Positions 6,088 through 61,578 of a DNA stretch of 64,000 bases are shown piece after piece (positions within the stretch are counted from its first letter, which is position 1; each line of letters starts with the position of its first letter). The notes beneath the pieces are model-generated. The model ran no database searches. It was not told the DNA's origin and was given only the letters and a program-made list of their open reading frames with translations. The translations under genes were made by a program, and so were the position numbers. Source of the DNA: Minisyncoccota bacterium (GTDB lineage: Bacteria; Patescibacteriota; Minisyncoccia; Phycocordibacterales; UBA918); NCBI GenBank assembly GCA_022841645.1, contig JALHRC010000005.1, positions 2,804-66,803 on the forward strand, in the 5' to 3' direction.

Positions 6088-6273
6088 ATGAAGACCCGTT
6101 TCCACCCGCGCCTCGGCGCATCCATGGCGGTCGAACCCGGTGCGAAGAAGCTCGGCACGCACACCCGCCCGATGGCCGTCGGCGCCGCTGCGACGCTGCA
6201 TGGCCAGGCCGCCGAGATCGCGCTGTTCGCCACCGCCCCGTCCCACGCCGCCGGCGGCTTCCTCGGCACCTGA
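6088..6273 (+). CDS. Hypothetical 61-aa Ala/Gly-rich protein in the GC-rich pocket
   Basis: An SD (AGGAAGGA) lies 7 nt upstream of the ATG. The ORF is followed by a perfect 11-bp hairpin (ccctctcgcag-caaaca-ctgcgagaggg, about 6295-6322). Coding status is uncertain because of GC bias. Confidence 0.25.
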   Translation: MKTRFHPRLGASMAVEPGAKKLGTHTRPMAVGAAATLHGQAAEIALFATAPSHAAGGFLGT

Positions 6274-6563
6274 AGCGCCGGCTGCTTCGGCCCTCTCGCA
6301 GCAAACACTGCGAGAGGGATCCCCGTTCTTTCACCCAAACCAAGAAGGAAACACGCACGACTGCGGCGAGGTGACTTCCCTTTTGAGTTTCTCCCCAATC
6401 AGGGAAATGCACCTCGCCGCTCGGCCTTACTTTTGGCCCAGCGGTTTTTTCTTTATATACTTTTTCACTTTCGACTTTAAAATTTTTAACTTTTCTCTTT
6501 TTAATTCTTCATTTTCAACTCTTCACTTTTCACTTTTATCTCTTCCTATTCCCTCCCCTTCAT

Positions 6564-6593: not shown

Positions 6594-6668
6594 AAAAGCG
6601 CCTGGGGAGCAAACACTTCTTTGGCAGCTGGGCGGATTCCCCGCCCAACAAACCAACAGGAGAGAACG

Positions 6669-6896
6669 ATGGGATGTGGGCAGGGCGGAAGTGGGCGTGG
6701 CGCTCCCAGGTCGTCACCCGGTACGGGCAACAGTGACATCGCGCCGACGTTGTCGGTCTTCGGGCGGATGTCCGGTCAACGTGGCCCTGATGATGTCGGC
6801 GGCGGCAATGGCGGCAGAGCGCTCGTCCTCGGCGGCATGGCTACTGCGATCGTGAGCGCGAGCGACGGGCGGGCCGTGCCCCACGTGGTGCGCTGA
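6669..6896 (+). CDS. Hypothetical 75-aa Gly-rich protein with a long structured 3' UTR
   Basis: A strong SD (AGGAGA) lies 5 nt upstream of the ATG. Nested perfect hairpins follow downstream (6918-6952, 6967-6998, 7000-7030). The ORF could instead be a GC-bias artefact within an ncRNA. Confidence 0.25.
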   Translation: MGCGQGGSGRGAPRSSPGTGNSDIAPTLSVFGRMSGQRGPDDVGGGNGGRALVLGGMATAIVSASDGRAVPHVVR

Positions 6897-7052
6897 CAAT
6901 GCGAAAGAGCGGCCGGTAGCTCCGAAAGCTACCAGTAACCGGCATGACGGGAAAGGCCCAGCGGACGAGCACCGCTCGCACCGCTGGGTCTCCATTCCAA
7001 AAACGATTTGAGGGATGGAGCACTGCTCACCCACTACAATTGCCCGCACAGC

Positions 7053-7079
7053 CACCCGGCCGTCGGGCGGTTTTTATTT
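7053..7079 (+). terminator. Intrinsic terminator (ccacccg-gccgt-cgggcgg then TTTTTATTT)
   Basis: A GC stem plus T-run ends the transcription unit that starts at the 6564 promoter, about 475 nt. Confidence 0.45.
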
Positions 7080-7379
7080 ACGCCACATACATTCAACCGC
7101 CGGCACTCCAAAATATAGCGAGCGCCCTACCGGTCAACCACCTCTCTCCTACTATCATGCATGATAGTAGGAGAGACGATTAGAGAGTGCTGTATTAGTC
7201 GCGTAGTTTTGACAATATTTTATATTGGCATACTATGCAGCTGCCATTTAACGAAATGGTCCCTGAAACCTTTTTTAGGGCGCTAGCGAGCAGAGAGGGA
7301 GTTAAGTTGCCCCCCAACCCGGCTCTTAATCTCATTCGCGTCAAACTCTTCGGCCACCCCTCGGGGTGACCGAACTTTT

Positions 7380-8468
7380 TTATGACTCCTCGTCGAGGCG
7401 CGCCGGCTTATCGAGGGTGAGTACATCCACACCGGCCGACTCGCCCGTGATGCGCAGCACGTCCTTGTCTACCTTCGCTAGTTCTTTATACCCAGCGTTG
7501 TAGTGATTGACGCTCGTCGCAAGCGCGTTGCCGAGCTTTTGGTAGTAGTCTTCATACTTGCCAATATGCGTTCCTAGTTTTTCCACGTTCTTGATGATAT
7601 CGATAGCCTTCTCTTCGATCTCAAGCGCTTTAAGGCCCTGGAGCACGGTCTGCAGGTAGGCGAGGAATGACGTGGGCGAAACAATAATCACCCGATACTT
7701 CCCGGCTGCCCGTTGGATGAGGTTCTCTTCCCCGCCAGTAATGGTATTGGAGAGGAGGTCGTAGTAGACACCTTCCGAAGGAATAAACATGAAGGCAAAG
7801 TCCATCGTCTTTTCACTCGGTCGGATGTACTTGGCGGTTTCGGTAATGCGCAACTTAAGGTCATTGATGAAGGTTTTTTCTAAAGTAGCGCGTTCTGTCG
7901 CGTCGCGCGCTTCAATGAGGCGATTGTAGTTTTCGAGCGAAAACTTTGAGTCAATCGGAATCACTTTGTCTTTCACAAACACCACAGCGTCGACAATTTC
8001 GGCATTGCCAAAGGCGTACTGCATTTGAAAGCTGCCGGGTGGCAGCACATTTTGCAGTACCGTTTCGAGGTAGTACTCGCCCAAAATTCCCCGTTGCTTC
8101 GGATTTTTAAGCACGTCTTGCAGTTGCTTGAGCTGCTCCGCAAAACCAATCACTTGGCGGTTGGTTTCTCCGAGGCGCGTCAACCCTTCCGTTACCTCGC
8201 GCACAATTTTCGACGACTCCGAGAGTTGGCTCTCGACCGTGCGCTGGATGGTACGACTCGATTCGCCGAGGCGCGCGTCGAGCGTGCGGGTGGAATCAGC
8301 GAGCCGTTCGTTCATCGTACGCGCGAGTTCTTGCATACCTTGCTGGAGGAGCAGGATACTTTGATCGGCCTCGGCTGGCTTTTCAGTGCGTTTTCGAAGA
8401 AGTAGGTACACCAAAAAGCCGTTTCCGAGGAGGAGCGCGACCACCAACACAATAATCAGCCATTCCAT
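7380..8468 (-). CDS. rmuC: DNA recombination protein RmuC (the ORF extends to 8516; the start is chosen at MEWLII)
   Basis: An N-terminal TM helix is followed by a long coiled-coil and the RmuC core (IPIDSKF, MFIPSEGVYYD, VSPTSFLAYLQ). Confidence 0.8.
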   Translation of the reverse strand: MEWLIIVLVVALLLGNGFLVYLLLRKRTEKPAEADQSILLLQQGMQELARTMNERLADSTRTLDARLGESSRTIQRTVESQLSESSKIVREVTEGLTRLGETNRQVIGFAEQLKQLQDVLKNPKQRGILGEYYLETVLQNVLPPGSFQMQYAFGNAEIVDAVVFVKDKVIPIDSKFSLENYNRLIEARDATERATLEKTFINDLKLRITETAKYIRPSEKTMDFAFMFIPSEGVYYDLLSNTITGGEENLIQRAAGKYRVIIVSPTSFLAYLQTVLQGLKALEIEEKAIDIIKNVEKLGTHIGKYEDYYQKLGNALATSVNHYNAGYKELAKVDKDVLRITGESAGVDVLTLDKPARLDEES

Positions 8469-50527: not shown

Positions 50528-51681
50528 ACGCCAAAATTTTTGATTGAGTAGAGATCGCTCTCGTCAATTTCCGGTTCTGATTCGGTAAGCGTAGTTTCGG
50601 GTGGTACTTCCATAACCGCTTCGCTCTCGTGTTCATACAGTGCACCGAGAGATTCACTGTGCGCAACGTCGGGTGGCAAGGCTGTCGCGGCAGGCAGAGC
50701 GCCTGAAGCTTCAGCGGAAATCACTAGTGGCGTGGCCGCAGTCAAGGCAGCTGCACCTCCGGTTGCGCTGGCCGCTTCGTGGCTACGCACCCGCTCGAGC
50801 ATGCTTTCGAGGTCGGCAATGGAGAAATAGTCGATAGTCAGTCGGCCCCCAAAATCAGTACGCTGGATCTTTACCCGCGTCCCCAGGCTGTCCATAAACT
50901 TCTTTTCCATGTCCATCAGATCAGCCTCCTGCTCAAGGTAGTCCTTCTTGCGCACTTTCTCGGTAGCAATACTGCGCGCAATCCGCTCCACCTCGCGCAC
51001 CGACAGCTTCTTTAGCAAAATCTCTTTAAAGAGCACTTCTTGCTCCTCTGGTCTATCAGACAGCATGAGGAGTGTACGCGCATGTCCCTCACTGAGTTTC
51101 CCGAGCTGTAATGCCTCAAGCACGGCCGGTGGAAGTGCCAGTAGGCGAATAGTGTTGGAGACATACTCGCGGCTGCGACCGACTTTTTCAGCCACCTGCG
51201 TGTGCGAGAGGCCAAAGACATTGGACAGCTGTTGAAACGCCATGGCGCGGTCCACCGCATTAAGATCCTCGCGCTGCAGGTTCTCGATAATGGCGAGTTC
51301 AAGTTTTTCTTGTTCTGTCTGTTCACCTTCACGAATAATGACCGGTACCAGGGTGAGCCCCGCGATCTTCGACGCACGTAAACGCCGCTCACCGGCGATC
51401 AATTCGTACTCTGAGTAGAAGGTGCCGTCTTCACGACTGCGCTCGTGCCGTGTCACCGTAAGTGGCTGCAGAATGCCGTACATACGCACTGAATCAGCCA
51501 GTTCTTTGAGCTTCTGCTCATCAAACTCCCGCCGCGGCTGAAACGGATTGGGAACAATTTTCTCTACTTCTACCCAGTAGATGGAGTCGCCATGAAATGC
51601 CATAGGAAAATACGCCGGATTACCTCCGCACCACCCGGTGCGAATTTCTGCCATTTTATCACGCCCCATGAGGCCAGGCAC
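50524..51681 (-). CDS. parB: ParB/Spo0J-like chromosome partitioning protein with an extended acidic C-terminus
   Basis: It has the ParB box (GERRLRA) and an HTH (LSHTQVAEKVGRSREYVSNTIRLL). Confidence 0.8.
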   Translation of the reverse strand: MPGLMGRDKMAEIRTGWCGGNPAYFPMAFHGDSIYWVEVEKIVPNPFQPRREFDEQKLKELADSVRMYGILQPLTVTRHERSREDGTFYSEYELIAGERRLRASKIAGLTLVPVIIREGEQTEQEKLELAIIENLQREDLNAVDRAMAFQQLSNVFGLSHTQVAEKVGRSREYVSNTIRLLALPPAVLEALQLGKLSEGHARTLLMLSDRPEEQEVLFKEILLKKLSVREVERIARSIATEKVRKKDYLEQEADLMDMEKKFMDSLGTRVKIQRTDFGGRLTIDYFSIADLESMLERVRSHEAASATGGAAALTAATPLVISAEASGALPAATALPPDVAHSESLGALYEHESEAVMEVPPETTLTESEPEIDESDLYSIKNFGV

Positions 51682-51743
51682 ACTGTTTATAACTGGGCGT
51701 TTTTCTGCTAGACTCTGTGGGATCTAGGGATTGTTTGTAGTAT

Positions 51744-51826
51744 GCCGCGGTGGCGGAATGGTAGACGCTGCGGACTCAAAATCCGTTTCCTTCACCGGAG
51801 TGAGGGTTCAAGTCCCTCCCGCGGCA
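51744..51826 (+). tRNA. tRNA-Leu (anticodon CAA)
   Basis: It has a 7-bp acceptor GCCGCGG/CCGCGGC with discriminator A, anticodon loop CUCAAAA, a long variable arm and TpsiC TTCAAGT. Confidence 0.85.
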
Positions 51827-51960
51827 CACTGCACGTAATGTTTATGGATCCGTTTTTTACAATGAGCTCAATCATGCTTGACTTGTTTATATTATCAGAG
51901 TTGCCTTAGGAGACGATAATCTTCCACGACGGAAAGTCTATTTAGGATACACTCCGCGCC

Positions 51961-52875
51961 ATGCCGAAACCAACACTCATCGCTATCGTCGGCCCTACCG
52001 CCTCGGGCAAAAGTGCACTTGCAGTCGAGCTAGCCCTTGAGCTGGGTGGCGAGGTGATTTCTGTGGATTCACGGCAGGTGTATCGTGGCATGGACATTGG
52101 CACTGGCAAGATTACCCAGGCAGAGATGCGCGGCATTCCCCACCACCTGTTTGATCTTGTCGATCCGGTAAATGACACGTACACCGCCACCGACTTTGAG
52201 CGCGACGCCAACGCTGCTATCAGTGATATTCTTGCGCGCGGTAAACAGCCGATTCTCTGTGGTGGCACTTTCTTTTACCTCGACGTTTTGCGTGGACGCA
52301 TGTCACCAGCTCCTGTCCCTCCGAACCCGCAACTTCGTGCACAGTTAGAGGCACTTTCCCTTTCTGAACTAGAAGTGCGACTGACACAACTCGACCCCGA
52401 ACGGGCGGCCACCATCGACAGCGAAAACCCCCGTCGCCTGATTCGGTCTATCGAAATCGCTACCGCCCTTGGTCATGTGCCAAAGGCTACGCCGGTGGAA
52501 TCACCATACGACTGGCACAGTATCGGCATTGATGTACCGCCAGCGACTTTGCGCCAGCGGATTAGTGAACGACTCGACGAACGATTAGCAGCGGGCATGG
52601 TTGATGAGGTGGTGAAGCTCCACGACGATGGAGTGTCGTGGGATCGGCTCGTATCGTTTGGCCTCGAGTACCGCTACATTGCCGAACATCTACAAGGCAA
52701 GCTTTCATACGGCAACATGCGCACCCAGCTTTTTTTCGCAATTTGTGGGTACGCCAAACGCCAGCGCACGTGGCTCCGCCGCGACCCGAACATACGGTGG
52801 TATCCGTTTCCGGTTGACGTACAAACGGTACTCAAGGAACTTTCTAACTACAATTCCCCAGAACCCTTCGGTTAA
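51961..52875 (+). CDS. miaA: tRNA dimethylallyltransferase
   Basis: It has the P-loop IAIVGPTASGKS and MiaA motifs (DSRQVYRGMDIGTGK). Two perfect palindromes follow (52860-52885, 52896-52917). Confidence 0.9.
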   Translation: MPKPTLIAIVGPTASGKSALAVELALELGGEVISVDSRQVYRGMDIGTGKITQAEMRGIPHHLFDLVDPVNDTYTATDFERDANAAISDILARGKQPILCGGTFFYLDVLRGRMSPAPVPPNPQLRAQLEALSLSELEVRLTQLDPERAATIDSENPRRLIRSIEIATALGHVPKATPVESPYDWHSIGIDVPPATLRQRISERLDERLAAGMVDEVVKLHDDGVSWDRLVSFGLEYRYIAEHLQGKLSYGNMRTQLFFAICGYAKRQRTWLRRDPNIRWYPFPVDVQTVLKELSNYNSPEPFG

Positions 52876-52946
52876 CCGAAGGGTTCGCACTCTTAGTTCA
52901 GCCCGTTAGTACGATCGATCGTACTAAGTGCGCCTGCCTCTTTTTT

Positions 52947-53017
52947 AAAATTCTGTTCTCGAAAACCGATCAATGTGGTAAGATGGCCCGCATCACGGGC
53001 CTATAGTTTAGTGGTAA
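52947..53017 (+). repeat. 71-nt duplicate of the tRNA-Trp promoter region plus the first 21 nt of tRNA-Trp (identical to 53184..53254)
   Basis: There is exact 71/71 identity. The copy stops in the D-loop and is followed by unrelated sequence. Confidence 0.7.
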
Positions 53018-53030
53018 GAAGCTAGTCGCT

Positions 53031-53180
53031 TCTTCCTTTCTGCGCTCACTCGGAAATCCAAACCTCATCGGCTTGGACTTCGCTCGTTTCGCTTGAAGAA
53101 AGCCTCCGGCAGGTCTTCCTTTCTGCGCTCACTCGGAAATCCAAACCTCATCGGCTTGGACTTCGCTCGTTTCGCTTGAA
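53031..53180 (+). repeat. Tandem direct repeat: two identical 67-nt units (53031-53097 and 53114-53180) separated by 16 nt
   Basis: The unit is tcttcctttctgcgctcactcggaaatccaaacctcatcggcttggacttcgctcgtttcgcttgaa, seen twice. Confidence 0.7.
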
Positions 53181-53233
53181 AGTAAAATTCTGTTCTCGAA
53201 AACCGATCAATGTGGTAAGATGGCCCGCATCAC

Positions 53234-53304
53234 GGGCCTATAGTTTAGTGGTAAAATTCTGGTCTCCAAAACCAGCGTCCTCCGTTCGAGTCGGAGTGGG
53301 CCCG
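53234..53304 (+). tRNA. tRNA-Trp (anticodon CCA)
   Basis: It has acceptor GGGCCUA/UGGGCCC with discriminator G, anticodon loop CUCCAAA and TpsiC TTCGAGT. A TGn-TAAGAT promoter-like sequence lies upstream. Confidence 0.85.
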
Positions 53305-53580
53305 CAGTCATATACAAAAAGTTAAGCACGGCACTTGCTTTGATCAGTTTTTATTTCGCCTGCCCTCACGGTATTTCGGTCAAAACCTTTCCCTAATCGA
53401 CCTTTTTCCAAGTGATGGCGAACATACAACCCCTTTAACTAGTTGGTGGAGCGCAATGCCAATGAGCACTACGGCTGTCAGCATCGGGGCCTTCCCAGGT
53501 ACACATAGTATTGGGCGATACACGATAACCAGTAAACCCCCCAAAACTCCGTAACCGCTCGTAGGCAGTTTGCCCTGTTC

Positions 53581-54318
53581 TCATCCAGTCATAAAAACAG
53601 GGCTATTACGTGAACTCAAATCAAGCGCTTGCCCTCCCCCGTGAGCACCCACACCGGTTGGATTACCTGGCGTGCGCACACCACTCGATACTTGTACGCC
53701 GCAAGATTGCTGCATCGCAATTTGACATTCTCTCGCCAATCGGGCAATTTCTTCAAGGCGAGCCGTCGATACTCCCGCTAGCTGCACTCCAGGCTGCACA
53801 ATTACTCCGGCCGCCGTAAGAATGCGCTGTGCATCAGCTGCGGTCGCCGGGTCAGGTGCTTGGCCAGGAAAACGTGGCGCTATCGCCGCACCTTGCGGCG
53901 ACTCTGGCCGATTAACATCGGGCACGGTTTGCGCAAAACACTCAATACGACTCCACGGCAATGGTCCACCTTGCATACCCTGCACTCCCAAACCCCGGAT
54001 CAACGTATCAACAGCAATCCAGGCACCTAAAATAATGAGCAGCCCAATGAACGCACTTACAAAACTTTCCTTTGCATCTTTTAGAGCGCTAGGGTTGCCA
54101 GCAGACGTCACCAGTTTGAAACCAGCTATGACAGCCAGCACCCCAAACCCGACTAAAAGTACTCCAATGAGCCAATCAATAATTGTGTTTGCCATCATCA
54201 CAAAGTCGCACGCACTGCACGTGGCTCCACTACAGGGTACAAAACCTTGTGCCTGAGTAAGATTGGGAATAAATACAAGGACAACTAGTAACTTTGTCGC
54301 TAACCACAATCGAAGCAT
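53581..54318 (-). CDS. Pilin-like protein with VirB2/TrbC-like topology (signal peptide, CxxC, two-helix hydrophobic hairpin) plus a C-terminal soluble domain
   Basis: Its N-terminal 95 residues are paralogous to 54909..55832 (LVP.C.G..C..C, DWL, AGFKL[VL]TS[AG]GNP, second hydrophobic helix). Confidence 0.4.
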   Translation of the reverse strand: MLRLWLATKLLVVLVFIPNLTQAQGFVPCSGATCSACDFVMMANTIIDWLIGVLLVGFGVLAVIAGFKLVTSAGNPSALKDAKESFVSAFIGLLIILGAWIAVDTLIRGLGVQGMQGGPLPWSRIECFAQTVPDVNRPESPQGAAIAPRFPGQAPDPATAADAQRILTAAGVIVQPGVQLAGVSTARLEEIARLARECQIAMQQSCGVQVSSGVRTPGNPTGVGAHGGGQALDLSSRNSPVFMTG

Positions 54319-54323
54319 AAAAT

Positions 54324-54887
54324 TTATTCAACGAGAGTAACTGCACTGGGACAAAAGCTGAGACCCACGTTTTGACCACCATAAAGCTCACTTGCATTGT
54401 TGGGTACAACAACACTCACCCGTAGCGTACATAGCTCACTGGTACCTAGTTTAACAAGACTTATTAGCCGATTTTCTGCTTCGCGTCGGTAAAACGAAAG
54501 GGGCTTCTGCCAAAGACTGATGGTGAAGCTTGTATCAAAATCGCTATACGTTATGGTATAGGGAGGTAATGGCAAACTTGGATCTAACGTTCCTGCCAAG
54601 TAATAAAATCCTTCATTATTTACGTCCGGTTCTACCCCTGCGTCTTCTCGAAAGTCGGTAAGTAAAATTTCAGTGTTGTCATTTCTGGTAATCGTAAGTG
54701 GGGTTCTAACTGAGGATGTTGCATTCGGCAGATTCTGTTGGTTGTCGGGTGGGAAGATGGTCACTGGCAGCACTGGCTGCTCATATACCTCGCCCTCATC
54801 AACACCAACGACCAGAATCTGCCCCAACACAAACATGGTCAGGATGAGAACTGCAGTCGCAATAGTTAAAAGAAATGTTTTTTTCAT
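54324..54887 (-). CDS. Hypothetical secreted or membrane-anchored protein (187 aa)
   Basis: It has an N-terminal signal anchor and sits between the two pilin-like paralogs. Confidence 0.4.
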   Translation of the reverse strand: MKKTFLLTIATAVLILTMFVLGQILVVGVDEGEVYEQPVLPVTIFPPDNQQNLPNATSSVRTPLTITRNDNTEILLTDFREDAGVEPDVNNEGFYYLAGTLDPSLPLPPYTITYSDFDTSFTISLWQKPLSFYRREAENRLISLVKLGTSELCTLRVSVVVPNNASELYGGQNVGLSFCPSAVTLVE

Positions 54888-54908
54888 AACTAGTTAATTT
54901 AAGTGATA

Positions 54909-55832
54909 TTAACGACACCCATTACGAGGATTAGTATATGCGCCCCAATGATTAAACCCTTGTCGTGTGCGCAACAAATCTTGCGCTACAGCAGTGTTGC
55001 AATCAATATTTTGGGCTGCCCGTACACATTGGACATATAAATCTCGATTGAGAATGACGGCGTCGTAATTTCTGCCCCGAAAAGCACTCGTGCAATCGAG
55101 ATTTCGCCCACCGTTAAGACGCGTGCAAGCTGGTTGATTTAAATTATGAACAGTAAGGTTGACTTGATACAGACCAACCGAAAATGAATCACCGGAAGCA
55201 CGTAATCGATCGGTTGAACTAAGCGCACCAGGCATGCATGCACTTTCACCCCGAATAATGCATGACATTGTTTCAGCTGCCGCGCCCCAAGTGCCACGAA
55301 GAGCATCTGGTGAGCAGGCGCCGCTAGCTAAACGTGTTGGATCAATTAAATTGCTCGAGCTAGCATTTGTAGGAGAAAGTCCACCCTGGAGATCTGGCTG
55401 CGCCACACACTGAATCTGATTCCAGGTACCGTATATTTGTCCAGTAACCAGCGCCTTAAGCAAGGTATCAATAAGTAGCCAAGCCGCCAAAAGAACTAAA
55501 AAACCAATTGCTACGTCGTAAAAGCGTTGTTTAGCCCAGCTCCTTGCCTCAGGGTTACCGCCAGATGTAAGTAGCTTAAAGCCCGCCATCATAAAGATAA
55601 GGGCGGCAACCATTGCGAGAATAAGTACCAGCCAGTCGACAACATTGTTGATGAGCAGTACTAAATGACAGAACTGGCAGGGATTTGCTATTCCACCACA
55701 CTGTGGCACGAGCCCCGCTGCCATAGTGGTGTCTGGCGTAAATAAAAATACCGTCGCCAGAACGACGCCAAGCCCCGCCGCCAAAAACCAACGTCTCATT
55801 ACGCCCATGGTACCATGGCGCCTCACTTCCAA
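54909..55832 (-). CDS. Pilin-like (VirB2/TrbC-like N-terminus) protein with a Cys-rich C-terminal domain bearing lytic-transglycosylase-like motifs
   Basis: Its N-terminus is paralogous to 53581..54318. The C-terminal domain has ES (RGESACMPG), GLYQ (SVGLYQVN) and AYT (NHWGAYTNP) motifs reminiscent of the SLT family, plus 12 Cys. The start could instead be at the internal MGVMRR. Confidence 0.4.
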   Translation of the reverse strand: MEVRRHGTMGVMRRWFLAAGLGVVLATVFLFTPDTTMAAGLVPQCGGIANPCQFCHLVLLINNVVDWLVLILAMVAALIFMMAGFKLLTSGGNPEARSWAKQRFYDVAIGFLVLLAAWLLIDTLLKALVTGQIYGTWNQIQCVAQPDLQGGLSPTNASSSNLIDPTRLASGACSPDALRGTWGAAAETMSCIIRGESACMPGALSSTDRLRASGDSFSVGLYQVNLTVHNLNQPACTRLNGGRNLDCTSAFRGRNYDAVILNRDLYVQCVRAAQNIDCNTAVAQDLLRTRQGFNHWGAYTNPRNGCR

Positions 55833-55888
55833 AATATCTGCCTGTGTGCTACCTTGTACGGGCTTTTATAGCACGAAGAAGAGTAGTT

Positions 55889-55936
55889 GCGCCGGTGGTG
55901 GAGTGGATGAAAAGTGAAGCGTTTCACTTTTCATCC
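55889..55936 (+). repeat. 18-nt fragment matching the tRNA-Tyr 5' end (gcgccggtggtggagtgg) fused to a perfect 14-bp hairpin
   Basis: It matches the acceptor/D-arm of tRNA-Tyr (17/18). The hairpin is ggatgaaaagtgaa-gcg-ttcacttttcatcc. Confidence 0.5.
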
Positions 55937-56061
55937 AGTCTTCCGCTAGTGCGGAAGAAGGGTCGTTGTGAGTACATGCGGAGCTTGCACGAACAGACCC
56001 TAGGAGGAATCGCGGACGAACGCCCATAGAAATCAAAGCGTTCCAATTAAAATCTATATTA

Positions 56062-56098
56062 CGTCGGTGGTGGAGTGGTCAATCACAACAGACTGTAA
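56062..56098 (+). repeat. 37-nt exact duplicate of the 5' half of tRNA-Tyr (through the anticodon), followed by a hairpin-rich 150-nt insert
   Basis: It is identical to 56252..56288. Serial perfect hairpins follow downstream (atgtgtcttc/gaagacacat, gtcgc/gcgac, aaatct/agattt). Confidence 0.65.
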
Positions 56099-56250
56099 GA
56101 CTGACGCTTCGCGCACCAGGCAGTCTTTCTGGCAGATGTGTCTTCCACCGAAGACACATTAAAAAGTCGCTATAGCGACACACCAGTAAATCTTACAGAT
56201 TTCCAGTCTAGATAGATTACGAAAAACATTTGAGTTACAATTGCATATCT

Positions 56251-56333
56251 GCGTCGGTGGTGGAGTGGTCAATCACAACAGACTGTAAATCTGTCGGCTT
56301 CGGCCTACGAAGGTTCGAATCCTTCCCGGCGCA
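56251..56333 (+). tRNA. tRNA-Tyr (anticodon GUA)
   Basis: It has acceptor GCGUCGG/CCGGCGC with discriminator A, anticodon loop CUGUAAA, a long variable arm and TpsiC TTCGAAT. Two terminator hairpins follow. Confidence 0.85.
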
Positions 56334-56455
56334 CAGGTCGTGAAAAACTTGACGTTTTTCCTCAGAAAGCTCTTGTATATCAAGGGCTTTTTTGGTGCCG
56401 AACCTACCTAGACTATCGCCAAGCTTCTTATAAACATTTTGAAAGCCGATTAGTT

Positions 56456-56854
56456 ATGTTTTGCACTAACTGCGGAAACAAAATCGACATAAATGAAAAG
56501 TTTTGCACAAATTGTGGACTTGAAGGTTTGGGCATTAACAACAAAAACCCACAAACTGCTCGAGAAACAGCTATCAGCGTAAAGAAAGATGAAAAATTGT
56601 ATCACAGATTAGGTGTGGTAATTTATGTGATAGCCCACCTTCCATTACTTGTTATTGTTCCTGTGGTTTGGTCAGAAAATGCAAGGTACTACAGTAGCTA
56701 CACTAAAACATACTCCGGCTCTGATTTTGAAGCGTTTTTGTATTCAGTCTTAACTATTATTATTTGCCTCTTAGTGCTTCGTCTGATTAAAATGGCGACT
56801 AAATATATTGTGATAGGTATAAAGCCCAAGATGCGAGATTTGATATTTTTCTAA
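56456..56854 (+). CDS. Zinc-ribbon domain membrane protein (132 aa)
   Basis: It has an N-terminal CTNCG-x10-CTNCG zinc ribbon and two TM helices. Confidence 0.5.
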   Translation: MFCTNCGNKIDINEKFCTNCGLEGLGINNKNPQTARETAISVKKDEKLYHRLGVVIYVIAHLPLLVIVPVVWSENARYYSSYTKTYSGSDFEAFLYSVLTIIICLLVLRLIKMATKYIVIGIKPKMRDLIFF

Positions 56855-56884
56855 AAAGAACCAACCAAGTACAACAACACTAGG

Positions 56885-57214
56885 ATGGCAACTTTTAAAG
56901 TCACACAGGAAGCAAAAGAACTTTTTGACAAGCTTGTCGCGGAAGGGATTTTTGCTGAACTAGAATACTGGGACGGGTACAAACACGTCGATATACACAT
57001 CCCATTAGCAAAACTTTACATTGAAGTCGATGGAGCCCAACACTTCACAAATCCCAACCAAATAGCCAGTGATTTTCTCAGAGACCACTACTCAGACAAT
57101 AGTGGCTACGACACCTTCAGAATTCCAAACCAAATAGTTAGAGATAAAATGAATACTGTAGTAAAAGCTATTTTAAAGATTGTTTCTGAACGATCTCACC
57201 ATCAGATTTTGTAA
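56885..57214 (+). CDS. DUF559 endonuclease-domain protein (Vsr/restriction-endonuclease-like fold)
   Basis: It has the VDIHIP..KLYIEVDGAQHF motif characteristic of DUF559. Confidence 0.55.
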   Translation: MATFKVTQEAKELFDKLVAEGIFAELEYWDGYKHVDIHIPLAKLYIEVDGAQHFTNPNQIASDFLRDHYSDNSGYDTFRIPNQIVRDKMNTVVKAILKIVSERSHHQIL

Positions 57215-57334
57215 AGGCAAGATACAAACCAGAAAGACTTTCTAAATCCAATTGAGCTTGAGAGTCAGAAATCGCAACCTTATACTGTCTAAACATGTAA
57301 TCTTGATATTTTGTTACTAATTTTACAGTAAACC

Positions 57335-58315
57335 TCATACAATTTTGGTGTCTGGTGACTCAAAAAGATCAGGATGTGTCAAAACTTTAGTCCCAATTTT
57401 TGAACATATTACTTTTTTTTGCGCGCAAGCTACACGCAAAGAAAGTATTGGCTTACCTGTGATTTTTGACACTTCTGATAAAGACAATAATTTTTTTATA
57501 TCATTAAATCTATTACAAATAACCACATCAAGTGCTATTGCTAGACTCTTATTAATAATCTCTTCTAGTTGCAAGGGTGGCTTTACAAACGGATCTTTGA
57601 AATTGTTTTTGATAATCGTTTGAACTATTGGATCGGCATGTTCGAGCGCATCTATATATTCTTTTCTGTCTTTTTCGCTACCCTTTATAGCAATGTTTGG
57701 ATAACCGTGCGCAACTAAAATAAAATTCATCAAGATTCTACCGACACGCCCATTACCATCAGGAAAAGGGTGAATTTGCTCAAACATATCGTGGACTATT
57801 GCAAGCTTTCTCACCAAATAATCCGTAGGCGTAGGCGTATTAGCAACCTCAATAAGCCCTTCAATATGACGCTCAATTTCAAAAGGTGATGAAGTTTTGA
57901 CCTTCGCACCTGTAATCTCTATGTCTCCCTTTCGCCATTCTCCAGGTGTGTAAGAAAAATTTGGGTCTCCTCTAAACATCAAAGAGTGAATTTGACGAAT
58001 AATTGCTTTAGACAATTTAAACTCTTTTGTCTGGAATTGCTGAAAAGCTAATTCGTACGCCGCAAATGCGGCATCAAAATAACCAAGTACTCGATACTCA
58101 GTTTTTGAGTATTTTGGATTATCAATAATATCAATAATATCTGTTCGACTGACAAAATACCCTTCTATCATTAATGAGTTTCTTGTATCCTCTTTAAGAA
58201 GATCCATCCACTCTTTATTTCGAACAGAAACACCACTCAACCCTCCCACATGAAAAAACCACTCAAATCTAAGATTTGCAGTTGAATTTGGTATGATTCT
58301 TCGTTTTATTGTCAT
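57335..58315 (-). CDS. Fic family protein (AMPylator-type motif HPFPDGNGRVGR)
   Basis: It has the canonical Fic motif HPFx[DE]GNGRxxR at HPFPDGNGRVGRIL. An extremely AT-rich multi-TATAAT upstream region spans 58316-58520. Confidence 0.75.
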   Translation of the reverse strand: MTIKRRIIPNSTANLRFEWFFHVGGLSGVSVRNKEWMDLLKEDTRNSLMIEGYFVSRTDIIDIIDNPKYSKTEYRVLGYFDAAFAAYELAFQQFQTKEFKLSKAIIRQIHSLMFRGDPNFSYTPGEWRKGDIEITGAKVKTSSPFEIERHIEGLIEVANTPTPTDYLVRKLAIVHDMFEQIHPFPDGNGRVGRILMNFILVAHGYPNIAIKGSEKDRKEYIDALEHADPIVQTIIKNNFKDPFVKPPLQLEEIINKSLAIALDVVICNRFNDIKKLLSLSEVSKITGKPILSLRVACAQKKVICSKIGTKVLTHPDLFESPDTKIV

Positions 58316-58537
58316 GTAAATTTTCTATTTACTAAGCAAGATCTAATACTTTTATTTACAAAGCATTATTTTAAGCCCTCTTTACTCAATGTTGATATAA
58401 TATCATATAATACTAAACTCGCAATAATCTATTATAATATAGTTTATATGGCTTAAAATATAAGTATATTACAAAAGTATAATAATCTCTTATTTTATCA
58501 TAATTATACATTTATATTTGAATATTACCCCACACAA

Positions 58538-58561
58538 AAGTGTCGAACCAACTCCAGCTCG
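58538..58561 (+). repeat. 24-nt direct repeat R1 (aagtgtcgaaccaactccagctcg) at the 3' flank of the rhuM-doc gene
   Basis: It is 23/24 identical to R2 at 59581..59604. Confidence 0.6.
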
Positions 58562-58573
58562 GCGCACAGAAAA

Positions 58574-59554
58574 CTACCGCAACATTTGTGTTACAAGCGC
58601 TACCATCTGCTCTTTCTTCTTTGGATCACTTTCGGCTATCAAAAGCGTAAGGGCAGTGAGTGCTGCTGGATTAATATTCTTTGCTCCTTTCACTCCCACC
58701 TTACGTAAGAACCACACAAAGGCAAACGCTCCTGAGCGCTTGTTGCCATCAGAAAATGGATGGTTCTTTACCATAAAGTAGAGCAGGTGTGCCGCTTTTT
58801 CCTCGACAGTTGGGTACACCGACTTACCACCAAATGACTGCATGACGTTACCGACGATACCTTCAATATTTCCTTCTCGCCGCTCGCTAGCAAACAAATC
58901 AGTGGCCTCCCCTTTCTTTATAAGTTCGCGCTTTAGTTCACTGATTACCAAGAGTAAATCACCTCCAACAAGCGCGACCTTCTTTTTAGTTACCCCCTTT
59001 AGTTCAAGGGTCTCCTTATCATACGCATCAAGGGAAACCCAGGTACCAGCAAATTCTTTTATTAGCTCAAGGACGGCTTTGGGGTCAAGGGTAACCTGAT
59101 CAGGTAACAAAGCTTGTACATCCGACACCGCTTTCATAAAAGCATCGTAATTTTGTGCAACTCGTTTTCGGTTTACGGTATACCCTTTGGTGACATGTTC
59201 ACGCAGAGTCTTAGTAGCCCACTGTCGAAAAGTAGTGGCTTTTTTGCTATTTACTCGATAACCAACAGAAAGAATCATATCGAGGCTGTAGTGATTTACT
59301 TCGCGCTCAATCTGACGCTTTCCTTCAAGCTGAAGTATCCGGAATTTCCGGATAGTTGCTTTTTCGACCAACTCTTCCGTCTTATAGATATTCTTAATGT
59401 GCTCGTTAATAGTTCGCACATCTACATCAAAAGCTAGGGCGATCTGTACTTGTGTTGCCCACACTGTTTCCATTTCCGAATCGCCCCGCAACTCCAAAGC
59501 ACCAGACTTAGTCTGGTAAATTACCATTTTTTGTTCCGACTTTTTCTTAGCCAT
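58574..59554 (-). CDS. RhuM-family N-terminal domain fused to a Doc-type Fic domain (HPFSDGNKR)
   Basis: It has a RhuM-like N-terminus (KMVIYQTKSGALELRGD..VWATQ..IA) and a Doc-type motif HPFSDGNKRSGAFAF. Confidence 0.7.
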   Translation of the reverse strand: MAKKKSEQKMVIYQTKSGALELRGDSEMETVWATQVQIALAFDVDVRTINEHIKNIYKTEELVEKATIRKFRILQLEGKRQIEREVNHYSLDMILSVGYRVNSKKATTFRQWATKTLREHVTKGYTVNRKRVAQNYDAFMKAVSDVQALLPDQVTLDPKAVLELIKEFAGTWVSLDAYDKETLELKGVTKKKVALVGGDLLLVISELKRELIKKGEATDLFASERREGNIEGIVGNVMQSFGGKSVYPTVEEKAAHLLYFMVKNHPFSDGNKRSGAFAFVWFLRKVGVKGAKNINPAALTALTLLIAESDPKKKEQMVALVTQMLR

Positions 59555-59580
59555 ATTAAGTGCATTTTAACATGAAGCAG

Positions 59581-59604
59581 AAGTGTCGAACCATCTCCAG
59601 CTCG
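59581..59604 (+). repeat. 24-nt direct repeat R2 (aagtgtcgaaccatctccagctcg) at the 5' flank of the rhuM-doc gene
   Basis: It is 23/24 identical to R1 and lies 26 nt upstream of the start codon. Confidence 0.6.
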
Positions 59605-59667
59605 TCACCACTTACGATCACTGCAAGCTCTACCAATCATACCTAAAATCATTGCTATACTGGACCT

Positions 59668-61578
59668 ATGTCAGTTTCTGCCGCGCAAAAACACAATCGT
59701 ATCCAGCTACTCACTGCCGTTCTGATGATAGTTATGCTCAGCAGCTATTTTGCCTACACTTCTCTTAAGAATAATCTCCCTCCCCCACCACCGGAGGCTA
59801 TGTATAGAAGTAAAGACGTGCCTACCATGGAGCGTGTCACGGATCTTTTGTCGTACATGTCACTTGAAGAGAAGATCGGACAGATGGCTCTCGTAGAGAA
59901 AAATAGTCTGCGCGCGGTTGAAGATATCTCAGCTTATGGCCTCGGTGCGCTCTTAAGTGGCTTTGGTGGGAGACCTGAAGATAATAGTCCCGCGGGATGG
60001 AAGACGATGGTTGAAACCTTTACTTCGGCAGCACGCTCGTCCCGCCTCGGCATACCCATCTTGTATGGCATCGACGCCATACATGGCCACAGTAATATTC
60101 CCGGTGCCACTATCTTTCCACACTTTATTGGACTTGGAGCGAGCGGTGACGCAACCCTCGTCGAAAACGTTGCGCGCGCCACCGCCAATGAACTTCTCGC
60201 GACCGGCGTACGCTGGAGCTACTCCCCCACCTACGACATGCCCGAAGATATTCGCTGGGGCCGCGTCTACGAAACTTTTTCTGACGACCCAGTGCTCGTA
60301 AGTAAGCTCGGAAGCGCCTATATCCGTGGCTTACAGAAAGCTCAAGGTCAACGTGCGGGAACTTCTTCTCAAGTAATGGTGCTCGCAACACCCAAACACT
60401 ACCTTGGTGCCGGTGGGATGCTGTGGGATACGTCGAGTAACGAGAACTTTAAAATTGATCAGGGTCTAACGCCGGAAGACGAGGCCAAATTGCGTGAGCA
60501 GTATCTGCCGCCATTTAAGAAAGCAATTGAAACCGGAGCGCTCAGTGTGATGGCGGGACTCAATAGCTGGGGTGATACAAAAATTGCCGCTTCCTCATAC
60601 CTCATTACCACCGTACTCAAAGCAGAACTTGGATTTAAAGGTTTTGTCGTCTCTGACTGGTACGGGGTGTACGAGATTCCGGGAAGTGATTACGAGGCTG
60701 CGGTCACCGCGATTAATGCGGGCGTCGATGTGGTCATGCTGCCGTTTGATTACCAGGACTTTGTGAGAAATGTGCGCCGGGCAGTACGACGAGGCGACAT
60801 ACCGGAAGAAAGAATTAATGACGCGGTACAGCGCATTTTAACTGCCAAATTTGAGTTGGGATTATTTGACAATGACACCACAAGAGACATCTCAGAGATT
60901 GGCTCACCGGAGCACCGTGCACTTGCCCGCGAAGCAGTCGCGAAGTCGCTGGTACTTTTAAAAAATGACGCCCGCCTCCTCCCGCTTCGCAGGACTACCG
61001 CTACGATCCGGGTCGCAGGAAGCGCTGCCGACAACATCGGGCGACAAACGGGCGCGTGGACAGTCGAGTGGCAAGGCATCGACGGCAACTGGTTGCCTGG
61101 CGCGACGTCAATTCTCGCCGGCATCAAGGAGGCAGCTCCACCTGGAACGACCGTGGAATTTGATAGCGGCGCATACTTTCCAGAAAATTCACCGAAGGCC
61201 GCTGTCGGTATCGCCGTCGTAGGCGAGGCTCCGTACGCCGAAGGCTGGGGCGATACTCCAATCCCCTCTTTAACTGAGGAAGACCGGGCGACGATCGAAC
61301 GCCTCAGAGCGGCAAGCGAGGTAGTGGTCGTGGTCTTGGTGACCGGCCGACCACTCTTTATAACCAACGAGATAAAAGATTGGGACGCAGTTGTCGTGGC
61401 CTGGCTTCCTGGCAGCGAGGGCGCTGGCGTGGCCGATGTGCTGTTTGGCAAAAGGCCCTTTACCGGAAAACTTCCCCTTCCCTGGCCGAGAACAACCGAG
61501 CAGCTCCCGATCACGGGCAGTGCCACAGCTGACGGCACTAATCCCCTATTTCTCCGTTACTATGGCCTAGGTATCTAA
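59668..61578 (+). CDS. Glycoside hydrolase family 3 (beta-glucosidase / beta-N-acetylhexosaminidase-like)
   Basis: It has an N-terminal signal anchor and GH3 N- and C-domain motifs (KHYLGAG, GFKGFVVSDW with the catalytic Asp, C-terminal alpha/beta sandwich). Confidence 0.85.
   Translation: MSVSAAQKHNRIQLLTAVLMIVMLSSYFAYTSLKNNLPPPPPEAMYRSKDVPTMERVTDLLSYMSLEEKIGQMALVEKNSLRAVEDISAYGLGALLSGFGGRPEDNSPAGWKTMVETFTSAARSSRLGIPILYGIDAIHGHSNIPGATIFPHFIGLGASGDATLVENVARATANELLATGVRWSYSPTYDMPEDIRWGRVYETFSDDPVLVSKLGSAYIRGLQKAQGQRAGTSSQVMVLATPKHYLGAGGMLWDTSSNENFKIDQGLTPEDEAKLREQYLPPFKKAIETGALSVMAGLNSWGDTKIAASSYLITTVLKAELGFKGFVVSDWYGVYEIPGSDYEAAVTAINAGVDVVMLPFDYQDFVRNVRRAVRRGDIPEERINDAVQRILTAKFELGLFDNDTTRDISEIGSPEHRALAREAVAKSLVLLKNDARLLPLRRTTATIRVAGSAADNIGRQTGAWTVEWQGIDGNWLPGATSILAGIKEAAPPGTTVEFDSGAYFPENSPKAAVGIAVVGEAPYAEGWGDTPIPSLTEEDRATIERLRAASEVVVVVLVTGRPLFITNEIKDWDAVVVAWLPGSEGAGVADVLFGKRPFTGKLPLPWPRTTEQLPITGSATADGTNPLFLRYYGLGI

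Follow-up and report, generated by a model that had tools for sequence, protein, structure and literature searches.

Tandem accretion at tRNA and tmRNA genes is known from the tycheposons of Prochlorococcus, with scattered partial copies (10.1101/2020.12.28.424599), and from the ssrA islands of Dehalococcoides, about half of which carry no integration module (PMC3146451); cis-mobilizable elements have been reviewed (PMC5704250). Bacteria of the candidate phyla radiation (CPR), or Patescibacteria, have tiny genomes in which few mobile elements and few defence systems have been recognised. The current study concerns an AT-rich island beside a tRNA-Tyr gene in a 64,000-nucleotide (nt) stretch of contig JALHRC010000005.1 (assembly GCA_022841645.1) from a Minisyncoccota bacterium. 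The whole stretch is called the window, and coordinates are those of the window unless preceded by an L-number (L014, L015, L094 and the like), which denotes a comparison stretch from another genome or metagenome. The organism is a CPR bacterium related to Ca. Kaiserbacteria (Paceibacteria), and its GH3 protein is 71% identical in amino acid sequence to proteins of Ca. Kaiserbacteria and related Paceibacteria metagenome-assembled genomes (MAGs). We propose, as a reasonably probable account, that the interval from tRNA-Tyr to GH3 serves as a hotspot of recombination, in which two tandem, horizontally acquired modules without an integrase lie at the 3' end of tRNA-Tyr. Taken singly, the genes for class II Fic, RhuM-Doc and DUF559 are unremarkable and belong to widespread toxin and defence families of known kinds. 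What stands out is a tRNA-Tyr-mimic repeat, which marks the borders of stacked modules in several genomes of Paceibacteria; no description of tRNA-mimic repeat arrays in CPR bacteria was found in the literature searched.

The island comprises the 3.3 kb that separate tRNA-Tyr from the conserved GH3 gene and begins 3 nt past the end of the tRNA gene. The order along the window is tRNA-Tyr, module 1, direct repeat 1 (DR1), module 2, direct repeat 2 (DR2) and GH3:

56251-56334, plus strand: tRNA-Tyr(GTA), called by ARAGORN and matching the Rfam tRNA model at 60.8 bits; anchor of the island
56337-58567: module 1, with a zinc-ribbon membrane protein (ZnR), DUF559, orf56, and Fic with its AT-rich leader
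56337-56455, plus strand: non-coding left end of module 1, without a counterpart in the homologous ZnR locus L111
58526-58569, plus strand: DR1, composed of TACCCCACACAAAA, GTGTCGAACCAACTCCAGCT, the core CGGCGCAC and AG; closes module 1 distally and bounds module 2 proximally
58568 to about 59610: module 2, RhuM-Doc only
59578-59610, plus strand: DR2, degenerate, matching the repeat consensus at 23 of 28 positions, its core decayed to CGTCACCA; terminal boundary, 58 nt before GH3
59668-61578, plus strand: GH3 beta-glucosidase-like gene (Pfam), the conserved native right flank, outside the island

The first-pass annotation of this DNA, made from the sequence alone, had described an island of about 35% guanine plus cytosine (GC) between flanks of about 55%, and this description holds, as the GC content is 0.348 over 56337-58559 against 0.518 for the whole window and 0.54 in the GH3 flank. 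The same segment has the lowest GC content of any 2.2 kb of the window, about 3.9 standard deviations (sd) under the mean (mean 0.518, sd 0.043), and a k-mer check, which the annotation had called for, identifies the island as the strongest tetranucleotide outlier of the window. Within the island, GC content is 0.186 in the Fic leader (58316-58525) and 0.442 in the RhuM-Doc gene. At the left end of module 1, blastn homology between the window and L111 begins at the ZnR start codon.

The flanks of the island are conserved beyond this genome. Synteny of GH3 and tRNA-Tyr is kept in L014, L016, L044 and L015. The first three of these keep the pilin-like gene, tRNA-Tyr and GH3, and have 1.1-1.7 kb of unrelated cargo between the latter two; syntenic relatives that lack the island and hold other cargo were therefore found, where the annotation would have been contradicted by the same genes at native GC. 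In L015 (2219-8238), the site is taken up by an insert of 6 kb, at whose end 20 nt exactly repeat the genome's own tRNA-Tyr 3' end; no integrase was found in this insert. Since the flanks are conserved and the cargo differs in syntenic relatives, the tRNA-Tyr-GH3 gap is a variable hotspot, and a compositionally foreign insert at tRNA-Tyr is supported by both the composition and this synteny break. The L015 insert has a GC content of 0.41-0.49 and by eye contains metabolic-looking genes (oxidoreductase-, aminotransferase- and peptidase-like).

The 24-nt repeat AAGTGTCGAACCA[A/T]CTCCAGCTCG, which had been noticed on both sides of RhuM-Doc, is real: it occurs exactly twice in the window (58538-58561 and 59581-59604), was found in none of 100 shuffles, and extends to 25 of 27 identical positions over 58535-58561 and 59578-59604. 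Its reading as the footprint of a RhuM-Doc cassette survives in part, as the repeat behaves as a site-specific junction, but DR1 also ends module 1 and pairs with the 3' end of tRNA-Tyr. DR1 runs on as CGGCGCACAG (58560-58569), identical at 10 of 10 positions, or at 14 of 17 when extended, to the last 8 nt of tRNA-Tyr and the next 2 nt (56327-56336). The 3' end of tRNA-Tyr, CGGCGCAC (56327-56334), followed by AG, is thus the left copy of the junction core. Because it carries this tRNA end, DR1 closes the AT-rich module besides opening the RhuM-Doc module. The 20 nt before CGGCGCACAG in DR1 are a diverged T-arm region, not an exact copy of the tRNA. DR1 matches the multi-genome consensus at all 28 positions and, together with its left extension (58526-58567), is identical at 41 of 42 positions to L098:4732-4773, with both flanks unrelated. 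DR2 also has a counterpart, a degenerate copy of the motif (21 of 28) that lies 92 nt upstream of GH3 in L014.

The 28-nt consensus of the repeat, GTGTCGAACCAACTCCAGCTCGGCGCAC, is shared by further Paceibacteria contigs. When metagenome contigs were scanned for exact matches to the pattern, the motif turned up in eight stretches, with every copy continuing as GGCGCAC, and wherever tRNA-Tyr is present on the contig the motif lies downstream of it in the same orientation. In JACCDR012200727.1 (L094 and L101, which are contiguous), the core recurs 9 more times as direct copies within 7.7 kb beyond tRNA-Tyr, where about 0.1 copies would be expected. The modules of this array are mostly single-gene, range in GC content from 0.32 to 0.57, and include genes for a zeta toxin, four paralogous 'MEPQ...' membrane proteins and small secreted proteins; the SpeE-like and ClpB genes that come after the array are those that flank the window island. 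A second array, in L095, has four or five cores, with Abi_2 and an AAA_33 kinase between copies, and in L098 copies of the motif lie downstream of tRNA-Tyr on the same strand, alongside shorter stretches that repeat the tRNA end exactly. In one study, several runs gave Logan contigs that are interrupted within DR1, at 58533 and 58555, and such breaks at k = 31 imply that further copies of the element, of at least 30 nt, exist in that community. The search for the repeat elsewhere, proposed in the first-pass annotation with integron-like or att sites in mind, thus showed the repeat to be conserved in several genomes and not a one-off footprint, and an attC-like site is not supported, as no covariation for a hairpin was found. 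Variants such as GGTTCGAACCAACTCCATCTCGGCGCAC bridge the repeat consensus to the tRNA sequence GGTTCGAATCCCTCCCGGCGCAC, and for this reason we infer that the repeat is a diverged copy of the region from the T-loop to the 3' end of tRNA-Tyr, with an insertion of 5-6 nt.

A membrane-anchored protein family recurs in array modules of L094, L095, L096, L098 and L101 (for example L101:3545-4189). Members of the 'MEPQ...' family are conserved at the N-terminus (MEPQ..., VTPLSKYLA..., LPF.GGW.GY) and differ at their C-termini, and the start codon lies about 22 nt from the motif.

We propose that the modules would have entered by site-specific recombination at the core CGGCGCAC of the tRNA-Tyr 3' end, mediated by a recombinase that worked in trans or has since been lost, rather than by one encoded in the array. 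Each module closes distally with a conserved 28-45-nt element, which would derive from tRNA-Tyr and ends in the core, and newer modules would insert beside the tRNA, shifting older ones outward. Module 2 would be the older insertion, since its repeat is decayed and its GC content partly ameliorated. The model makes predictions at the level of single junctions: loss of module 1 should join ...GAATCCTTCCCGGCGCAC to AGAAAACTACCGCAAC, loss of module 2 should join ...CCACACAAAAGTGTCGAACCA[A/T]CTCCAGCTCG to TCACCACTTACG, and a circle of module 1 should join ...GTGTCGAACCAACTCCAGCTCGGCGCAC to AGGTCGTGAAAAACTTGACG.

Several observations weigh against this proposal. No recombinase domain was found by Pfam in the island or in the 30 window open reading frames (ORFs) scanned, about 12 ORFs of at least 150 amino acids lying outside the scan, in agreement with the annotation's statement that no integrase is evident; regular-expression searches found no tyrosine-recombinase signatures, and no integrase or recombinase was found inside the comparison arrays. 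The motif also departs from a simple copy of the tRNA terminus, given its 5-6-nt insertion and its T-stem changes, and its derivation from tRNA-Tyr is a matter of interpretation. Some copies are spaced by only about 200 nt, with no gene between them. The motif is absent beside the RhuM-Doc and Fic homologues of other genomes (L102 to L110), and two search patterns gave no match in IMG/VR viral contigs. The comparison sequences are all MAG or metagenome contigs, and the Logan contigs are broken at repeats. Finally, the activities ascribed to the cargo below are predicted from family membership.

One end of L099, an 8.4-kb contig with a GC content of 0.38, encodes a large serine recombinase with Resolvase, Recombinase and Zn_ribbon_recom domains (6855-8432), and a copy of the motif is present at the other end (160-180); no other recombinase was seen near a copy of the motif.

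The missing recombinase would also fit a region that is what remains, after decay, of larger integrative elements or prophages (one or two of them), with the repeats as fossil attR sites and nothing mobile now. This explanation, which we consider unlikely, would also account for the degenerate state of DR2 (23 of 28), for the 6-kb insert of L015, which is likewise without an integrase, and for the occurrence of parts of module 1 in larger, mobile-looking contexts (extra genes in L111; methyltransferase and GIY-YIG genes in L113). However, the perfect DR1 (28 of 28), shared at 41 of 42 positions with another genome, points to constraint or recent origin, and nine short modules without integrases are hard to obtain by the independent decay of nine full elements.

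Still less probable, in our view, is a regulatory or structural role for the repeat, as promoter or operator, as terminator or as small RNA, in which case it would have been copied with gene duplications and would not be a site of recombination. Read on the opposite strand, the motif is often found 22-30 nt ahead of a start codon, as at RhuM-Doc and at the 'MEPQ...' paralogues of L094, L095, L098 and L101, and short palindromes (ACAC-N2-4-GTGT) occur at the left edge of the repeat. The minus strand can form a weak hairpin of 6-7 bp with G-U pairs (6 bp by RNAalifold), and a terminator scan flagged 58561-58544. On the other hand, an alignment of 21 copies contained 0 compensatory pairs, shuffles reached the observed pairing in 271 of 500 cases, and the T-run after the hairpin is missing in most copies; an attC-like or terminator hairpin is therefore not supported. 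Neighbouring genes lie on both strands and on both sides of the motif, and neither a promoter nor a terminator explains the tRNA-Tyr 3' terminus within it or its fixed orientation downstream of the tRNA.

An assembly or binning artefact, in which a low-GC module from another organism or locus was joined at shared repeats, is very improbable. In its favour, module 1 is a separate contig in every Logan assembly, ending in the repeated 5' half of tRNA-Tyr (56275-56306) and inside DR1 (58555), and the Logan contigs with RhuM and GH3 begin at 58532-58540, one of them with 2 nt (TG) unlike the window. Against it, repeats of 37-38 nt should interrupt an assembly made at k = 31, the 3' half of the window tRNA-Tyr, which is unique, is present in the module-1 contigs with 100% identity, one set of runs gave all the contigs, with 100% identity and 23 nt of identical overlap with neighbouring contigs, a 69.9-kb NCBI contig carries the ZnR, Fic and RhuM-Doc proteins together, and analogous arrays exist in independent assemblies.

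The island encodes the following:

57335-58315, minus strand: Fic, 326 amino acids (Pfam Fic, 6.7e-18, 65.8 bits)
58316-58525, minus strand: AT-rich leader of Fic, GC content 0.186, with the boxes ATTATATGATAWTAT, TATAAGCC...GGCTWAAAA and GTATTAGATC
58574-59554, minus strand: RhuM-Doc, a RhuM N-domain with a Doc-type Fido domain, 326 amino acids (Pfam RhuM, 88 bits; Fic/DOC, 2.4e-12)
56456-56854, plus strand: ZnR, zinc-ribbon membrane protein, 132 amino acids (Pfam Zn_Ribbon_1, 3.9e-7)
56885-57214, plus strand: DUF559 protein with a Vsr-like PD-(D/E)xK fold, 109 amino acids (PF04480, 32.5 bits, cut-off 20.6)
57168-57338, minus strand: orf56, 56 amino acids, from the ORF listing and also called in Logan contigs

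Pfam confirmed the domains that the first-pass annotation had assigned to its four genes, and the affinity with defence and toxin proteins also stands, as Fic matches PADLOC SoFic (5.9e-27) and RhuM-Doc aligns along its entire length with PDC-S23, a candidate family of PADLOC (1.5e-112). The four genes, which the annotation had called a candidate toxin or defence cassette, are not one system; they form a mosaic, in which Fic with its leader, RhuM-Doc, and the group of ZnR, DUF559 and orf56 each occur separately elsewhere, and their products probably work separately. The annotation had remarked that no cognate antitoxin is evident, which is largely explained by the class II inhibitory motif of Fic and by the single-gene nature of RhuM-Doc.

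The catalytic motif of Fic is intact, as the annotation had reported: HPFPDGNGRVGR, of the HxFx(D/E)GNGRxxR type, at residues 182-193 (nt 57772-57737). An inhibitory motif of the type (S/T)xxxE(G/N) is found N-terminal to the core (SLMIEG, residues 47-52; S47-LMI-E51-G52), inside the region that aligns to the SoFic profile, and on account of this N-terminal motif we assign the protein to class II. It is thus predicted that Fic is held off by its own N-terminal Glu51 helix. The C-terminal tail appears to resemble a helix-turn-helix. The PADLOC SoFic match covers only positions 48-242 of the 361 in the profile, and Fic falls below the curated NCBIfam SoFic equivalog NF046030 (36 bits, cut-off 550); because it fails this model, we consider the protein SoFic-like and not an orthologue. 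Among structures in the PDB, 3cuc and FICD match at about 1e-11, and the direct match to SoFic is weak (6.7e-5, over 36 residues). There are about 550 homologues, the closest in Paceibacterota with 60-81% identity, and in L107, L109 and L110 Fic is a solo gene of low GC content (0.34-0.36).

SoFic-type class II Fic proteins are toxic AMP-transferases in antiphage defence, one of them with a small downstream antitoxin (PMC12249575). By analogy, the window Fic would be a class II AMP-transferase that arrests growth once de-repressed, as in SoFic-type abortive infection. With SoFic and other class II Fic proteins (PMC12249575; PDB 3eqx, 3zcn) it shares the canonical motif, the N-terminal inhibitory helix motif, an extra C-terminal domain and the character of a single-gene defence-type toxin. 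Among its differences from them, the small ORF downstream of it is not kept with Fic homologues, unlike AS1 of E. coli, and its conserved 210-nt AT-rich leader has no described counterpart. A homologous leader accompanies Fic in L107 (5700-6000), L109 (5700-6000) and L110 (5750-6000), with a GC content of 0.22-0.28 in loci of 0.40-0.45, and the 'multi-TATAAT region' of the first-pass annotation therefore belongs to the Fic gene's own module. The count of sigma-70-like promoters in the region does not exceed that in shuffles (12 against 9.2 +/- 3.0). RNAalifold gave no consensus fold for four leader sequences. The leader could be an operator for the C-terminal domain of Fic or a small RNA.

The RhuM domain of RhuM-Doc scores 88.2 bits against PF13310 (cut-off 33.7), covering model positions 1-70 only. 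The motif HPFSDGNKR, of the HxFx(D/N)(A/G)NKR type, occupies residues 265-273 (nt 58762-58736) and is invariant in 28 homologues. The match to DOC_P1 is 32.7 bits, under the cut-off of 38.65, and the literature searched makes no mention of PDC-S23. The AlphaFold model has a mean predicted local distance difference test (pLDDT) score of 55, and only residues of about 30-115 reach moderate confidence; with this low-confidence model, Foldseek returned no PDB match at E <= 0.001, the best being P1 Doc (3kh2) at E 0.72. With P1 Doc of the Phd-Doc system the protein nevertheless has in common the Doc-type motif, in which Lys replaces the second Gly, and a Fido fold region that aligns with Doc chains (PDB 9vzc, 0.0055), whereas the fusion to a RhuM-type N-terminal region of about 200 residues and the lack of a Phd-like gene set it apart. 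No adjacent Phd-type antitoxin gene exists at RhuM-Doc in the window. Its homologues, of which there are more than 8000, with identities of 70-87% across Patescibacteria, are solo genes in varied housekeeping contexts. Since this single-gene architecture is widespread and the module leaves no room, with 12 nt left beyond the stop codon and 23 nt ahead of the start codon, a partner gene would not be expected. From these features RhuM-Doc may be a Doc-type kinase fused to an N-terminal domain, possibly one for sensing or DNA binding. The segment SERREG (residues 223-228) was considered as an inhibitory helix and rejected, as E227 is not conserved among the 28 homologues.

RhuM-Doc homologues also lie downstream of tRNA-Gln in two loci, at about 220 nt in L103 and about 900 nt in L104. 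In L103 (7712-8981, a Nomurabacteria MAG), a 30-nt sequence 100 nt beyond tRNA-Gln exactly repeats the 3' end of that tRNA gene, and the RhuM-Doc homologue comes next; partial copies of tRNA 3' ends seem common in genomes like these.

Of the remaining genes of module 1, ZnR has CxxC pairs at residues 3 and 17 and, by hydropathy, two hydrophobic segments (about 52-72 and 90-112). Its family has 34 members, which in L111-L114 lie amid small unannotated genes and methyltransferase or GIY-YIG genes. In the DUF559 protein the family core (D...ExDG..H) is present, as the segment VDIHIP...LYIEVDGAQH aligns to the 'endonuclease-like protein' 3hrl of the PDB (0.0057; PvuRts1I, 0.026); PADLOC matches to mREase_II and DpdF are weak. 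L111 carries homologues of ZnR (71% identical), DUF559 (81% identical) and orf56, followed again by two copies of the motif, and has three extra genes between ZnR and DUF559. orf56 is convergent with DUF559, overlapping it by 47 nt, and its ATG overlaps the Fic stop codon (ATGA). In L111 and L112 it has equal length, an equal position relative to DUF559 and 63% amino acid identity, and is the sole open frame there; the differences by codon position number 14/5/13. Profile searches returned no family match for it. A check for small antitoxin ORFs beside Fic, which the annotation had suggested, thus did find this 56-amino-acid frame, but it is absent at the Fic homologues of L107, L109 and L110. 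orf56 was consequently rejected as an AS1-like antitoxin of Fic, being kept beside DUF559 in L111 and L112, which have no Fic. We infer instead that DUF559 and orf56 may be a nuclease-fold protein with a conserved small partner.

In L111, an 89-nt tRNA-Ile(TAT) call (6269-6357) adjoins orf56. The two L111 copies of the motif (6645-7727) are exactly 1043 nt apart, the same spacing as between DR1 and DR2 in the window; because the enclosed sequences are unrelated, we treat this as coincidence.

The DNA upstream of tRNA-Tyr has features of its own. Two copies of the 5' part of the tRNA are found there. The first (55887-55906) begins with 18 nt of the tRNA, runs on into a hairpin with 18 perfectly matched base pairs (55901-55940) and reaches to about 56040; it is conserved in L014 (8038-8123) and partly in L015, the two closest relatives. 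The second (56059-56106, plus strand) comprises tRNA positions 1-38 and breaks off within the anticodon loop. At 56195-56209 there is an inverted pseudo-anticodon arm, and the region of these copies (55887-56240) matches no Rfam family. tRNA-Trp (53234-53305) is a second tRNA gene of the window with a duplicated 5' part upstream: its own upstream region and first 21 or so nt are copied exactly over 69 nt (52949-53017 and 53176-53244), and these copies bracket an insert that holds two perfect 67-nt copies (53031-53097 and 53114-53180). An Rfam search of 51000-60500 (E <= 1) returned only tRNAs and chance matches. Just upstream of tRNA-Tyr, 53581-55832 encodes two proteins with a type IV secretion system (T4SS) pilin domain and an unannotated protein of 187 amino acids, and GC content is lowered (0.43-0.45) over 54000-55200; a pilin-like gene occupies this position in L015, L016, L044 and L098 too. 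The remaining genes of the window are housekeeping genes by Pfam (ParB, MiaA, SerRS, DprA, a DNA polymerase III clamp-loader subunit, Dus and RelA/SpoT).

If the proposal is true, a tRNA-Tyr hotspot with stacked and swapped modules for toxins, defence and surface proteins would be one way in which episymbionts vary their accessory genes. The conserved 28-45-nt tRNA mimic provides a sequence handle for finding arrays in metagenomes and for nominating the recombinase. Small leads that are open to testing come from the AT-rich leader conserved in this Fic lineage and from the pairing of DUF559 with orf56.

Among the known systems closest to the locus are the accretion islands anchored at tRNA and tmRNA genes. 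It shows their position 3' of a tRNA, distal repeat, atypical composition and site variability, but no integrase of its own was found. Like them, it would represent insertion at a tRNA 3' end in a genome that is small and streamlined; its modules are set apart by partial copies of the 3' end, newer inserts would lie beside the tRNA, many modules have no integrase, the cargo is accessory, defence or toxin genes, and relatives hold different cargo at the site. It differs from them in its CPR host, in its short modules (0.2-2.8 kb, mostly one gene), in the repeated site, which is a diverged, conserved 28-45-nt version and not the tRNA itself, and in that no tyrosine or serine recombinase, replication module or excision module was seen in the arrays examined here.

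Chromosomal integron arrays offer a second comparison. The repeat here is tRNA-derived and 28-45 nt long, whereas attC is an imperfect palindrome of 57-141 nt; no folded-strand signal was found in it, and the cargo genes lie in both orientations. Neither intI, attI nor Pc was identified, and upstream of tRNA-Tyr in the window, L015, L016, L044 and L098 there is instead the T4SS-pilin-like gene; no recombinase domain was found. The arrays are, however, tandem single-repeat cassettes in one orientation, with ten direct cores in L094 and L101, four or five in L095 and two modules in the window. We raise, tentatively and as a doubtful possibility, that Paceibacteria possess an integron-like cassette capture built on a tRNA, with an array of toxin, defence and surface genes. 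A recombinase encoded elsewhere would recognise the tRNA-Tyr 3'-end mimic of about 42 nt on small circles carrying a promoter and a gene, and circles inserted successively at the tRNA-Tyr terminus would give exchangeable arrays, of which the window would be the two-cassette case. What the two kinds of array have in common is a string of mostly single-gene modules of mixed composition, one conserved repeat per module, at the same end and in the same orientation beside a fixed anchor, and a cargo rich in toxin and defence genes.

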